64,000 nucleotides of DNA, taken from a phage. Position numbers and translations under genes: made by a program. The stretch lies in NCBI GenBank assembly GCA_033759635.1, contig GCA_033759635.1_4528.1. One strand, given 5' to 3'. The notes beneath the pieces were generated by a model, which saw only the letters and a list, made by a program, of their open reading frames with translations, searched no databases and was not told the origin of the DNA. Of this stretch, positions 10,789 through 27,858 are shown one piece after another (the first letter of the stretch is position 1; each line of letters opens with the position of its first letter).

Positions 10789-10862
10789 GGCCCTGTAGCT
10801 CAACGGTTAGCAGCAGTCCCCTCATAAGGGAAAGGTTACCAGTTCGAATCTGGTCTGGGTCA
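10789..10862 (+). tRNA. tRNA with CAU anticodon (Met, or Ile if lysidine-modified)
   Basis: Hand-folded cloverleaf: acceptor GGCCCUG/CUGGGUC (one U-U mismatch), anticodon stem UCCC/GGGA with loop CUCAUAA, T-arm ACCAG-UUCGAAU-CUGGU; CCA not encoded. Confidence 0.65.
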
Positions 10863-10868
10863 TATATT

Positions 10869-10945
<77 letters not shown>

Positions 10946-23491: not shown

Positions 23492-23950
23492 ATGACTATC
23501 AATTCAGACGTTTTTATCCGCCGTAATAAACTCCGTCGAATCTTTGAAACGGAGTTCCGCAAAATAAATGCCGGTATAAAAGATGCTGCAAAGTCTCTTG
23601 GACTACCAGGCTTTCATATCAAGTATTCTCAACATCTCTTAGATCGTGCCATCCAGAGAGAAATAGATGAGAATTACGTTTTTGAATTATTTCGTAAAGT
23701 AAAAAATCATGTTAAAGAAGTTGCAGAATTTTTATCAATGCCGGCACGTCCAGATGTTGATGAAGATTTTGTCGAAGGTGTCGAATATCGCCCAGGCCGT
23801 TTAGAAATAACTGATGGAAATCTTTGGTTAGGACTTACAGTCTGTCGCGAAAATCCAGCATTCAAAATGAAGACTCTTCAATGTAGAATGGCTATTATTA
23901 ACAGTAAACGACTACCAGGAAAAGCTTCTAAAGCAGTGATTAAAATCTAG
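23492..23950 (+). CDS. regB: RegB site-specific endoribonuclease
   Basis: MTINSDVFIRRNKLRR...KYSQHLLDRAIQREIDE...GVEYRPGRLEITDGNLWLG... matches T4 RegB as recalled from memory (not searched); 152 aa. Confidence 0.8.
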   Translation: MTINSDVFIRRNKLRRIFETEFRKINAGIKDAAKSLGLPGFHIKYSQHLLDRAIQREIDENYVFELFRKVKNHVKEVAEFLSMPARPDVDEDFVEGVEYRPGRLEITDGNLWLGLTVCRENPAFKMKTLQCRMAIINSKRLPGKASKAVIKI

Positions 23951-23958
23951 AGGTAAAC

Positions 23959-24501
23959 ATGAGAAAAGCACTACTCGCTGGTCTATTTGCTCTTTCGTTA
24001 TCAGCACATAGCTCCGAGCATACTTTTAGTAATGTCCAACTCGATAACTTGAATTATGCTTATCAGTTTGGGGAACAGTTTTCTAAGGACGGAAAATTTA
24101 AAACGCATGAAAATATGCATAAGAAAGGACTTGGATACATAATGGCCGCAATACTATGGCAAGAATCATCTGCCGGTATTAATCTTAAAGATAAGAAAGG
24201 TCACCATGCGTATGGAATGTTCCAAAATTATCTACCGACAATGAGGGCAAGAATTAACCAGCTTGGTTATAATATGTCTGATGCCCAAATTAAGAAAATG
24301 CTATCTAAGCGGTCTAATTCGGCCAGATGGGCTTATATCGAATTTTCTTATTGGTTAAATATACATAACGGGGATATAAGAAAAGCTATATCCTCATATA
24401 ATGCGGGGTGGAAGACAAGTGCTGGAAGTAAATATGCTTCTGAAGTCCTAGAAAAGGCTAATTACCTTAAATCAAATAAACTACTGGAAATAAAAGAATG
24501 A
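23959..24501 (+). CDS. exported lytic transglycosylase (SLT domain)
   Basis: N-terminal signal peptide; SLT motifs in order: ES (LWQESSAG), GLMQ-like (YGMFQ), AYNAG-like (SYNAGW). Confidence 0.65.
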   Translation: MRKALLAGLFALSLSAHSSEHTFSNVQLDNLNYAYQFGEQFSKDGKFKTHENMHKKGLGYIMAAILWQESSAGINLKDKKGHHAYGMFQNYLPTMRARINQLGYNMSDAQIKKMLSKRSNSARWAYIEFSYWLNIHNGDIRKAISSYNAGWKTSAGSKYASEVLEKANYLKSNKLLEIKE

Positions 24502-24845
24502 CCAAAATGTTAGCTTTAATAGTTGGCTTGGTTTCATTTAACGCTCTTGCTAATACTACATATACTGATGTAACGGAGTATACAAACAGAACGGCGTCTG
24601 ATTATTGTGGTAAAAGTCAAGAGTGTAAAGTAGATTTTTCACAAAAATTGTTATATGCGTATAAAGACGGAGAAAAAGATGGGGCGTCTAGTAGGTTCAA
24701 GGCGTCTACCTTAATTAAAAGATACTATAAAAAATGGCAAATATTAGAATGCTCGGTGGCGGAACCTAAAGATAAGGCAGCATGCAATTCTATGGTGGAC
24801 CGTCTAGTTGACTCTTATACTAGAGGACTTGCAGCAAGTGATTAA
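24498..24845 (+). CDS. exported Cys-containing protein
   Basis: Signal peptide (MTKMLALIVGLVSFNALA), four Cys; ATGA-coupled to the transglycosylase gene. Confidence 0.5.
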   Translation: MTKMLALIVGLVSFNALANTTYTDVTEYTNRTASDYCGKSQECKVDFSQKLLYAYKDGEKDGASSRFKASTLIKRYYKKWQILECSVAEPKDKAACNSMVDRLVDSYTRGLAASD

Positions 24846-25305
24846 AAACTATATCAAGGGCGATATTGTCGCCCTGTTTTCTAAAGGTAATAATATTGCT
24901 CATGGGTGCAATTGTTTTCATACAATGGGTGCCGGTGTAGCAGGTCAATTGGCAAAGGCTTATCCAAAAATTTTAGAAGCCGATAAACTTCAAACCGAAT
25001 TCGGAGACGAGTCTAAACTCGGGACTTATTCGGTTTATGAAAAATATTTTAAGACCCATAAAGCTTATTGCTTTAATCTTTATACACAGTTTGAGCCGGG
25101 ACCTAATTTTGAGTACTCTGCTTTAATGAATTGTATAATAGAATTAAATGAATTCGGAAAAAATAAGATAACAAAGCCTGTAATTTATATGCCAAGAATT
25201 GGTGCAGGTATTGGTGGTGGAAACTGGGATGTCATCGAAGAGATTTTAGATACGTATTCCACTAAACTAGAAATTGTGATTGTTGATTGGGAACCATTGT
25301 TATGA
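24808..25305 (+). CDS. macro domain protein (putative ADP-ribose binding/hydrolase)
   Basis: Macro-domain signature N-x-A-x(5)-G-x-G-V-x-G (NIAHGCNCFHTMGAGVAGQLAKAYP); track start is TTG at 24808, GTG at 24838 is an alternative. Confidence 0.6.
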   Translation: MTLILEDLQQVIKNYIKGDIVALFSKGNNIAHGCNCFHTMGAGVAGQLAKAYPKILEADKLQTEFGDESKLGTYSVYEKYFKTHKAYCFNLYTQFEPGPNFEYSALMNCIIELNEFGKNKITKPVIYMPRIGAGIGGGNWDVIEEILDTYSTKLEIVIVDWEPLL

Positions 25306-25514
25306 ATGTGCATTATCCTCACCCGTATGACCCAAAGAATAAAGCAGTTATTATTCGTGAATGGGAAGAAATTCGTCAGACTAAGTGTCCTATTAATAGT
25401 CCACATGATGTCGATAAAGACTACATTGGAACATTCGTTGAATATACCTTTATTGATAAGAAAGGTCGTAAACAGCATGTAGAAGAATACTGCTTAAAGG
25501 TGACATGGTTATGA
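25302..25514 (+). CDS. hypothetical protein
   Basis: ORF 25287..25514 trimmed to MNVHYPHPYD... Confidence 0.45.
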   Translation: MNVHYPHPYDPKNKAVIIREWEEIRQTKCPINSPHDVDKDYIGTFVEYTFIDKKGRKQHVEEYCLKVTWL

Positions 25515-25696
25515 GTTTAAGTAAAGAACAAAAAGACAAACTCTTTTCTCTTATCCATGAAGTTATGGATAAAAATAGCGAATTGGAAAAAGTTTGTAAT
25601 GAATGTGGTCCTTTTAATACTGACGAATACGAAGAACTGTGTAAAGATTTTGACGATAAAGAGCAAGAACTTATTGATTATATAAATTCATTATGA
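25505..25696 (+). CDS. small acidic hypothetical protein
   Basis: 63 aa; similar in size and composition to the next ORF. Confidence 0.45.
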   Translation: MVMSLSKEQKDKLFSLIHEVMDKNSELEKVCNECGPFNTDEYEELCKDFDDKEQELIDYINSL

Positions 25697-25890
25697 TTAC
25701 TCGCGAACAAAAGAACGAAATATTATTTTTAGTTGGTGAAATTATTAGTTTAGAAAAGGATTTGTCTTTTGAAATATCTTCTGAATATGGAGATGCCGAA
25801 ACATATTACGAATTAGTAAAATCTATCAATAAAGCTGAAAATGATTTAGAAACATATTTAGAAAATTTAACTAAGGACTCTTATGGCTAG
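25693..25890 (+). CDS. small acidic hypothetical protein
   Basis: 65 aa, ATGA-coupled. Confidence 0.45.
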   Translation: MITREQKNEILFLVGEIISLEKDLSFEISSEYGDAETYYELVKSINKAENDLETYLENLTKDSYG

Positions 25891-26464
25891 TTTAATTTTT
25901 ACCTATGCCGCTATGAACGCTGGTAAGTCTGCTTCATTACTTACTGCCGCACATAACTATAAAGAACGTGGCATGGGTGTATTAGTTCTTAAACCTGCTA
26001 TTGATACTCGAGATTCAAAAGGTGAAATAGTCTCTCGTATTGGTATTCGTCAGGATGCCAATATAATTACAAAAGACATGGACATCTTTGAATTCTATAA
26101 ATGGGCTGCAGCACAAAAGGATATTCATTGTGTATTTGTTGACGAAGCTCAGTTCTTAACTACTGAAAAGGTGTATCAACTTAGTCGTATTGTTGACGTA
26201 TACAATGTGCCAGTAATGGCATATGGACTACGAACAGATTTTAAAGGTAATCTATTTGAAGGTTCTCAAGCATTAATGGCTATTGCCGATAAGCTTGTTG
26301 AACTTAAAGGTGTCTGTCATTGCGGTAAAAAGGCCACAATGGTAGCTAGAGTCACGGAAGATGGACTTCCAATTACAGATGGTGGACAAATTGAAATTGG
26401 TGATACCGATAGATACGTGTCATTATGCCGGAAGCATTGGAATGATTTGACAGGGATGTTATAA
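25883..26464 (+). CDS. tk: thymidine kinase
   Basis: P-loop YAAMNAGKS, VDEAQF, C-terminal Zn-ribbon CHCGKKA...CRKH; 193 aa as T4 Tk. Confidence 0.9.
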   Translation: MASLIFTYAAMNAGKSASLLTAAHNYKERGMGVLVLKPAIDTRDSKGEIVSRIGIRQDANIITKDMDIFEFYKWAAAQKDIHCVFVDEAQFLTTEKVYQLSRIVDVYNVPVMAYGLRTDFKGNLFEGSQALMAIADKLVELKGVCHCGKKATMVARVTEDGLPITDGGQIEIGDTDRYVSLCRKHWNDLTGML

Positions 26465-27120: not shown

Positions 27121-27300
27121 ATGACACGTAAAGAAAAGATTTCTAAGTTGATGTTTTTGATTGAAGAGTACGCTAATGCGGTATCTGATTGGGAAAATGC
27201 TCATGGTTGCGAAGATGGAGACATCGACATTAACAGAGCTATGAAAAAGATGGCCGACGCCCACACTGAATTGCAAATGTATGTTAACGAGATTATGTGA
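27121..27300 (+). CDS. hypothetical protein
   Basis: ORF 27052..27300 trimmed to MTRKEKISKL... downstream of the promoter. Confidence 0.45.
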   Translation: MTRKEKISKLMFLIEEYANAVSDWENAHGCEDGDIDINRAMKKMADAHTELQMYVNEIM

Positions 27301-27572: not shown

Positions 27573-27683
27573 TGAAACTTTTGCTTATCGCTTATGTTGT
27601 AGTACAATACAATTATCCGATGTTTACTTATAACATGGTAAACGGCATAGTGAATCTTATTGAAACGAGTATGGTAAAATGAC
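27573..27683 (+). CDS. very small hydrophobic ORF (36 aa)
   Basis: MKLLLIAYVVVQYNYPMF...; GGAG RBS directly after the promoter cassette; below track cutoff. Confidence 0.3.
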
Positions 27684-27858
27684 CCGTGAACAAGCTAATA
27701 AATTGATGGACCTTATCCGTGACCTACGTGAAGCCGATTCAGATTTGAATGATGTAGCTTATCACGCGGTAAATGATAACGGAGACTTTTATGAAAATCA
27801 GGTTGATGCGTGCCAGAATGCTTTGGTGAATTTTGTTGAAACTTTAATTGGTGAATAA
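27679..27858 (+). CDS. small hypothetical protein (59 aa)
   Basis: MTREQANKLMDLIRDLREADSDL...; ATGA-coupled; below track cutoff. Confidence 0.4.
   Translation: MTREQANKLMDLIRDLREADSDLNDVAYHAVNDNGDFYENQVDACQNALVNFVETLIGE

Follow-up and report, generated by a model that had tools for sequence, protein, structure and literature searches.

The tk.4/adfM gene of a Mosigvirus phage: a macrodomain with a predicted glutamine-type active site and a probable role against DarTG2

Phage T4 deprived of both adfA and adfN retains full resistance to DarTG2, and a further anti-DarTG factor was proposed (Johannesman et al., PMC11825919). In HIDEN-SEQ on a DarTG2 host, tk.4 was the single significant T4 gene, and a clean tk.4 knockout made T4 sensitive to DarTG2; the gene was renamed adfM, for anti-DarT factor Macrodomain (2025 preprint, bioRxiv 10.1101/2025.11.20.689424). 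Enzymatic removal of ADP-ribose by T4 AdfM is described in the same preprint only as something that 'seems likely', and the literature searched yielded no biochemical assay of either T4 Tk.4 or the protein described here. The name AdfM was given independently to PhiKZ gp104, which in vitro frees DNA of the ADP-ribose added by DarT2 and is less active as the N23A mutant (Morgan et al., Cell Rep 2026, PMC13309987). SCO6735 of Streptomyces coelicolor outpaces DarG and TARG1 in removing thymidine-linked ADP-ribose, and it rescues Escherichia coli from DarT; Q85A and Q85E abolish its activity, N27S nearly does so, and the mechanism proposed is water mediated, with Gln85 positioning the distal ribose (PMC9411070). 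SCO6735 is 54% identical to BT1257 of Bacteroides thetaiotaomicron, and both are Gln-type ALC1-like macrodomains (PMC9411070) that act as thymidine-ADP-ribose hydrolases on DNA. Thymidine-ADP-ribose on single-stranded DNA is hydrolysed both by Gln-type SCO6735 and by Lys-type DarG, TARG1, and PhiKZ gp104. Here we describe a macrodomain gene in a 64,000-nucleotide stretch of phage DNA (GCA_033759635.1, contig GCA_033759635.1_4528.1), referred to as the window.

The gene and its surroundings

The window is assigned to a Mosigvirus (an RB69-like T-even phage) on the basis of sequence similarity: the 2.6 kb around the macrodomain open reading frame (ORF) share 97-98% identity with Shigella phage SHSML-52-1 and with many other Mosigvirus genomes. 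On the + strand, the order is regB, vs.1, vs, the macro ORF, tk.3, two small Tk.1/Tk.2-like ORFs, tk, rI.1, and rI, as compared to regB-vs.1-vs-tk.4-tk.3-tk.2-tk.1-tk-rI.1-rI in the T4 record (Table 1). The position of tk.4 between vs and tk is the same in both. Three small ORFs separate the end of the macro gene (25305) from the start of tk (25883), so the gene lies upstream of tk, where the earlier note had placed it; in RB69, the same interval holds only tk.2. The succession of vs and the macro gene is common to T4, RB69, CrRp10, Klebsiella phage EI, and UTK0003, and is kept in the genera Tequatrovirus, Mosigvirus, Marfavirus, and Gelderlandvirus.

The window protein is identical to T4 Tk.4 (NP_049723) at 130 of 155 positions (84%) without a gap, and to RB69 Tk.4 (NP_861803) at 152 of 153 (99%). 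With this identity and the shared gene order, we identify the gene as the Mosigvirus orthologue of T4 tk.4 (adfM). T4 and RB69 Tk.4 (155 and 154 residues) are, like the window protein, single domains, and their genes follow vs directly, ahead of tk. They start with ATG and overlap vs by 4 nt, as compared to GTG and 8 nt in the window, where the vs stop codon occupies 24843-24845. No functional difference between the window protein and T4 or RB69 Tk.4 is expected; the DarTG2 phenotype itself comes from T4 rather than from an RB69-like phage (bioRxiv 10.1101/2025.11.20.689424). The earlier note knew of no macro domain in the classical T4 gene set, which was wrong. The T4 record describes NP_049723 as 'phosphatase; Tk.4; contains A1pp phosphatase motif', an annotation that dates from the 2000s, and RB69 is annotated likewise. 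A1pp is the SMART name for the macrodomain, and the A1pp match of tk.4 orthologues has been in print since 2006 (PMC1524935). The gene is therefore genuine but already known, as T-even tk.4/adfM, with its phenotype and name public since late 2025.

The ORF first reported, 24808-25305 on the + strand, encodes 165 residues from a TTG codon, and its translation contains exactly the motif quoted in the earlier note, NIAHGCNCFHTMGAGVAGQLAKAYP. The end of this interval stands, but the start is 10 codons too long, GTG 24838 being likelier. The ATG of T4 tk.4 aligns with GTG 24838, and GAGGA is found 10 nt upstream in both phages. Annotated Mosigvirus records, including phage moskry, start at the matching position and give a product of 155 residues, and tblastn matches to Tequatrovirus orthologues begin only at residue 11 of the 165-residue ORF. 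The real product would therefore have 155 residues (24838-25305). TTG 24808 was rejected as the start on the T4 and moskry alignment and the conserved GAGGA, and the first 10 codons (30 nt) of the longer ORF are probably vs sequence that is untranslated in the macro protein. GAGG(A/T) is kept in the window, T4, moskry, CrRp10, and Klebsiella phage EI, and of the orthologues compared, the two most distant lack it. Two antisense ORFs lie over the strongly conserved coding sequence and are annotated in none of the records compared.

Table 1. Features of the tk.4/adfM region and other elements of the window
Feature	Position	Strand	Description
tRNA-Met(CAT), tRNA-Arg(TCT)	10789-10945	+	adjacent; found with Rfam and ARAGORN
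regB	23492-23950	+	upstream neighbour
vs.1	23959-24501	+	upstream neighbour; SLT-like
vs (valyl-tRNA synthetase modifier)	24498-24845	+	PHROG 1256, E 5e-35; directly upstream of adfM
Mechanical 5' ORF extension	24808-24837	+	from TTG 24808, inside the end of vs; not in T4, RB69, or moskry Tk.4
Antisense ORF	24820-24948	-	over the adfM coding sequence
GAGGA, Shine-Dalgarno-like	24823-24827	+	10 nt before GTG 24838; read directly from the sequence
adfM/tk.4 coding sequence	24838-25305	+	155 residues, GTG start, TGA stop; single macrodomain
Hairpin	24857-24875	+	codons 7-13 of adfM; 8 bp, GC-rich, AGGGCGAT-ATT-GTCGCCCT, then GTTTTCT
N-terminal signature NIAHGCNCFHTMGAGVAGQLAKAYP, residues 19-43	24892-24966	+	H22, N25, and G31-x-G33-V-A35, the diphosphate/distal-ribose loop
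N80-L-Y82-T83-Q84 strand end	25075-25089	+	Q84 codon 25087-25089
Antisense ORF	25185-25478	-	over the adfM coding sequence
P119-R-I-G-A-G-I-G-G-G-N-W130 phosphate-binding loop	25192-25227	+	near-identical to BT1257 MPRIGCGLAGGKW
tk.3	25302-25514	+	directly downstream of adfM/tk.4
PHROG 653 ORFs (Tk.1/Tk.2-like)	25505-25696, 25693-25890, 27121-27300, 27679-27858	+	about 60 residues each; paralogous
tk (thymidine kinase)	25883-26464	+	PHROG 592, E 3e-87; downstream landmark

About 20 nt past the start codon, the gene carries a hairpin that resembles an intrinsic terminator; in the minimum free energy fold, its T-run also pairs with the Shine-Dalgarno region. T4 and CrRp10 have an identical hairpin, whereas Klebsiella EI, UTK0003, and Raoultella M21a have lost it and show no compensatory changes. 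Its fold z-scores are only -2.4 and -1.6, a modest thermodynamic support. We rejected it as a conserved regulatory element because of its loss in distant orthologues and the low z-scores; it is probably lineage specific and incidental.

Several features of the surroundings were recorded in passing. The window has only two tRNA genes. In T4, the tRNA genes form a cluster of eight. Four paralogous ORFs of PHROG 653, scattered around tk and rI, have 29-33% pairwise identity and an M-x-T-K/R-E-Q...L...L pattern in common; RB69 has fewer of them at the tk.4-tk junction than the window. Both vs.1 (MRKALLAGLFALSLSAHS...) and Vs (MTKMLALIVGLVSFNALA...) have hydrophobic N-termini resembling signal peptides, which for Vs is odd given its annotation as a cytoplasmic 'valyl-tRNA synthetase modifier'. 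In minimal medium, vs is the most depleted T4 gene (HIDEN-SEQ preprint, bioRxiv 10.1101/2025.11.20.689424). The public record of moskry (MN850651) mislabels vs.1 as 'endoribonuclease RegB' and tk.3 as 'putative ABC transporter ATP-binding protein', and RB69 'tk.1' is labelled 'helicase loader'; for sequences matching window 23959-24501 and 25302-25514, such errors in public records are propagated annotation.

Macro fold, active site and distribution

Residues 32-146 of the window ORF match Pfam Macro PF01661 (model 2-117/118, E 2.2e-6) with 28.1 bits, above the curated gathering cut-off of 22 bits, and the ORF also matches PHROG 335 ('phosphatase', E 7e-67). The macro domain named in the earlier note is therefore real and a chance match of the motif is excluded. 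An AlphaFold2 model calculated from a 46-sequence alignment, from which the T4 sequence was left out, has a mean pLDDT of 95.4 and a pTM of 0.90. The predicted structure is a three-layer α/β/α macro fold, the outcome that the earlier note had looked for in a fold prediction. Foldseek against the Protein Data Bank returned TARG1 (E 4e-10), Poa1p (2.5e-9, TMq 0.80), Thermus DarG (1e-7), and BT1257. The family profile matches BT1257 (8e-17), TARG1 (1.5e-16), SCO6735 (1.2e-13), Mycobacterium tuberculosis DarG (4.6e-13), and Poa1p (7.8e-13). The Foldseek and profile matches thus place the protein in the ALC1-like/Poa1p-like macrodomain group. It is a free-standing macrodomain of 155 residues with no partner domain, and no second macrodomain was found in the window.

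Conservation was counted over 121 homologues, no two of them identical and the most divergent at about 39% identity. G33, A35, D49, N80, Y82, and Q84 are invariant (121/121), with H22 (118/121), N25 (119/121), C26 (120/121), and W130 (118/121) nearly so; P119, I121, G122, and G124 are each kept in 119. The two ADP-ribose-binding loops, G31-A-G33-V-A35 and I121-G-A-G-I-G-G-G128, are invariant or nearly invariant. N25 aligns with N23 of PhiKZ AdfM and, via BT1257, with N27 of SCO6735. In four independent profile alignments (TARG1, Thermus (Taq) DarG, PhiKZ gp104, and BT1257), Q84 occupies the position of the catalytic lysine. Its counterparts are K84 in TARG1, K80 (FPTK) in Thermus DarG, K77 in PhiKZ gp104, a glutamine in BT1257, and Q85 in SCO6735. 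D125 of TARG1 aligns with G126 of the window protein. We found no discussion of the invariant glutamine of the T-even family in the literature searched.

Homologues were found by tblastn in 2,801 of 50,697 phage records. The carriers include T-even, Vequintavirus-like, Felix-O1-like, and Ackermannviridae-like phages, and further phages of Vibrio, Acinetobacter, Pseudomonas, Geobacillus, and Cellulophaga. In a set with one genome per prokaryotic species, 379 stretches with 35-45% identity were found, many of them on megabase contigs, from bacteria that include Ruegeria, Desulfobacter, Verrucomicrobia, Hymenobacter, and Stieleria. At the best 80 of these 379 loci, no DarT2 was found within 4 kb (one Pseudomonas aeruginosa query; best tblastn E 0.8) and no conserved neighbours beyond lineage-specific synteny. 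The bacterial homologues are common in the Roseobacter group, Desulfobacter, Verrucomicrobia, Planctomycetes, and Hymenobacter, and keep HGCNC...NxYTQ...IGAGxAGGDW.

Proposed function and its alternatives

We estimate at roughly 80% the probability that the window gene, as the orthologue of tk.4/adfM, encodes a protein that hydrolyses DarT2-made thymidine-ADP-ribose through a Gln-type site and thereby lets the phage escape DarTG2. Reversal of DarT-type DNA ADP-ribosylation had been suggested in the earlier note, and the sensitivity to DarTG2 of T4 deleted for the orthologue bears this out (bioRxiv 10.1101/2025.11.20.689424). We infer the enzymatic step and the roles of N25 and Q84 as follows. 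The protein would bind the ADP-ribose put by the host toxin DarT2 on thymidine in single-stranded phage DNA. Hydrolysis of the ribose-thymine bond would then release ADP-ribose and restore replicable DNA, and the phage would escape the abortive defence of DarTG2. In the active site, Gln84, in place of the catalytic lysine of DarG and TARG1, would be positioned by Asn25 and would in turn align the distal ribose for a water-mediated cleavage. The substitution of glutamine for lysine gives a concrete mutational prediction for the T-even enzyme (N25A, Q84A).

The protein might instead act mainly without catalysis, by binding the toxin or its product and so neutralising DarT2, as the C-terminal domain of DarG or SCO6735 Q85A can. 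The dead Q85A mutant of SCO6735 inhibits DarT efficiently in vitro by direct interaction (PMC9411070), and protection by the T-even protein could therefore be partly non-catalytic. AdfA, the other T-even anti-DarT factor, is moreover a small protein without recognisable homology to known proteins. Against a mainly non-catalytic role stands the conservation of N25, the GxGxA loop, NxYTQ, and the PxIGxG loop, all invariant or nearly so in the 121 homologues. The residues that contact ADP-ribose are kept also in bacterial chromosomal homologues without DarT nearby. Such conservation is expected for an enzyme and not for a toxin-specific binder. The protein is, furthermore, without a DarT-binding domain, its match to the 338-position DarG model being confined to positions 4-146. 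We regard neutralisation by binding as improbable.

The historical 'phosphatase / A1pp' annotation would make the protein a Poa1p-like ADP-ribose-1''-phosphate phosphatase, or a processor of other soluble ADP-ribose derivatives; it would dispose of NAD-derived signalling molecules or of by-products from RNA repair, and DNA would not be its substrate. Poa1p is among its close structural matches. The name 'phosphatase', however, comes from the SMART A1pp match alone, with no assay, and DarTG2 sensitivity is the sole phenotype on record. The Pnk/Rnl route of RNA repair in T4 is not known to produce Appr>p. This reading is a shade less probable still than neutralisation by binding. The window protein can be confidently annotated as an anti-DarTG2 factor, and we advise 'macrodomain ADP-ribosylglycohydrolase AdfM' in place of 'phosphatase'.

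ADP-ribosylated proteins or RNA could also be the main substrates, with protection from DarTG2 a side activity; the protein would then counter other host ADP-ribosyltransferase defences or tune the modifications made by phage Alt, ModA, and ModB. Its close structural relatives TARG1 and SCO6735 also hydrolyse Asp/Glu-linked protein ADP-ribose, and family members are found widely in bacteria with no DarT beside them. Macrodomains are present in 41% of myoviruses (PMC9503650), a frequency with which our tblastn distribution is consistent and which goes beyond what one defence system would explain. When substrates compete, however, SCO6735 strongly prefers DNA over protein. Alt and Mod enzymes modify arginine, and no ALC1-like macrodomain is known to cleave arginine-linked ADP-ribose. 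CmdTAC, an mRNA ADP-ribosyltransferase, robustly blocks T4 even though the phage carries tk.4 (PMC11618068), so this RNA modification, at least, is not effectively reversed. A link between the family and CmdTAC was considered and dropped, as macrodomains appear in that paper only within the reference list. Protein or RNA as the main substrate is the least probable of these alternatives.

Comparison with known macrodomains

DarG of DarTG2 (PDB 5M31, 5M3E, and 5M3I) has the catalytic Lys80 in FPTK where the window protein has Gln84, and a C-terminal DarT-binding domain that is absent from the window protein. The PADLOC DarG model is matched (E 9e-9). The NCBIfam DarG equivalog NF048014 gives 31.9 bits as compared to a cut-off of 250 bits, the match covering only the macro part (model 4-146 of 338). 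A captured DarG was ruled out on this sub-cut-off score, the missing C-terminal domain, the glutamine in place of Lys80, and the closer match to BT1257. No DarT was found in the window by tblastn with a P. aeruginosa DarT2 query (best E 3.4), a single query that would miss distant DarTs.

PhiKZ gp104 shares with the window protein its name, the defence countered, the stand-alone macrodomain architecture, and the asparagine at N23. The two proteins are only about 20% identical, and gp104 is DarG-like (M. tuberculosis DarG, E 9e-25) and carries the FPTK lysine motif. As the protein of a chimallivirus, it is imported into the phage nucleus, a structure that T-even phages do not have. Orthology between the two was ruled out by the low identity and the different subclass. 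Since 2025-2026, two non-orthologous phage macrodomains have thus been called AdfM, a collision that could mislead annotation transfer.

SCO6735 is a stand-alone gene, as are the bacterial homologues of the window protein; the T-even gene is thus more likely to derive from a free-standing bacterial macrodomain than from a captured DarG antitoxin. T-even AdfM, with the Gln/Asn centre of SCO6735 but neither its extended mobile loop nor its K34, may represent a third type of active site and architecture among thymidine-ADP-ribose hydrolases, recruited from stand-alone bacterial macrodomains and not from DarG; we hold the chances for and against this to be even. The substrate range of the T-even family might also be wider than that of DarG and include, for example, Asp/Glu-linked protein ADP-ribose. 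If the third-type reading is true, phage 'AdfM' arose at least twice, from a DarG-like Lys-type lineage (PhiKZ gp104) and from a Gln-type lineage (T4 Tk.4).

Yeast Poa1p and human TARG1/OARD1 belong to the same ALC1-like/Poa1p-like fold group as the window protein. Poa1p has the H-x-C-N-C motif in common with it and has other known substrates (ADP-ribose-1''-phosphate). The catalytic dyad of TARG1, K84/D125, corresponds to Q84/G126.

The window protein is about 26-30% identical to SCO6735 and BT1257. The subclass of these two is defined by a 'mobile loop' five residues longer than in TARG1 and DarG, and this loop, 5-6 residues longer, is missing from the T-even family. In 103 of the 121 family members, Q84 and Y93 are separated by 8 residues; aligned to the family profile, BT1257 has 6 residues inserted immediately behind Q84...G88. 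K34, which together with K89 positions DNA in SCO6735, is replaced by Ala32 in the window protein and by Ala, Ser, or Gly in 116 of 121 homologues. With alanine at this position and no extended mobile loop, the mechanism of SCO6735 may therefore not transfer in detail. Basic residues are frequent at K60 (K/R in 100% of homologues), K50 (74%), and R120 (71%), and these could be candidate replacements for the DNA contacts. The Gln/Asn/His centre and the PRIGxGxxGGxW loop are the same in SCO6735, BT1257, and the window family, and judged by these residues the T-even family belongs with the Gln-type SCO6735/BT1257 macrodomains rather than with DarG.
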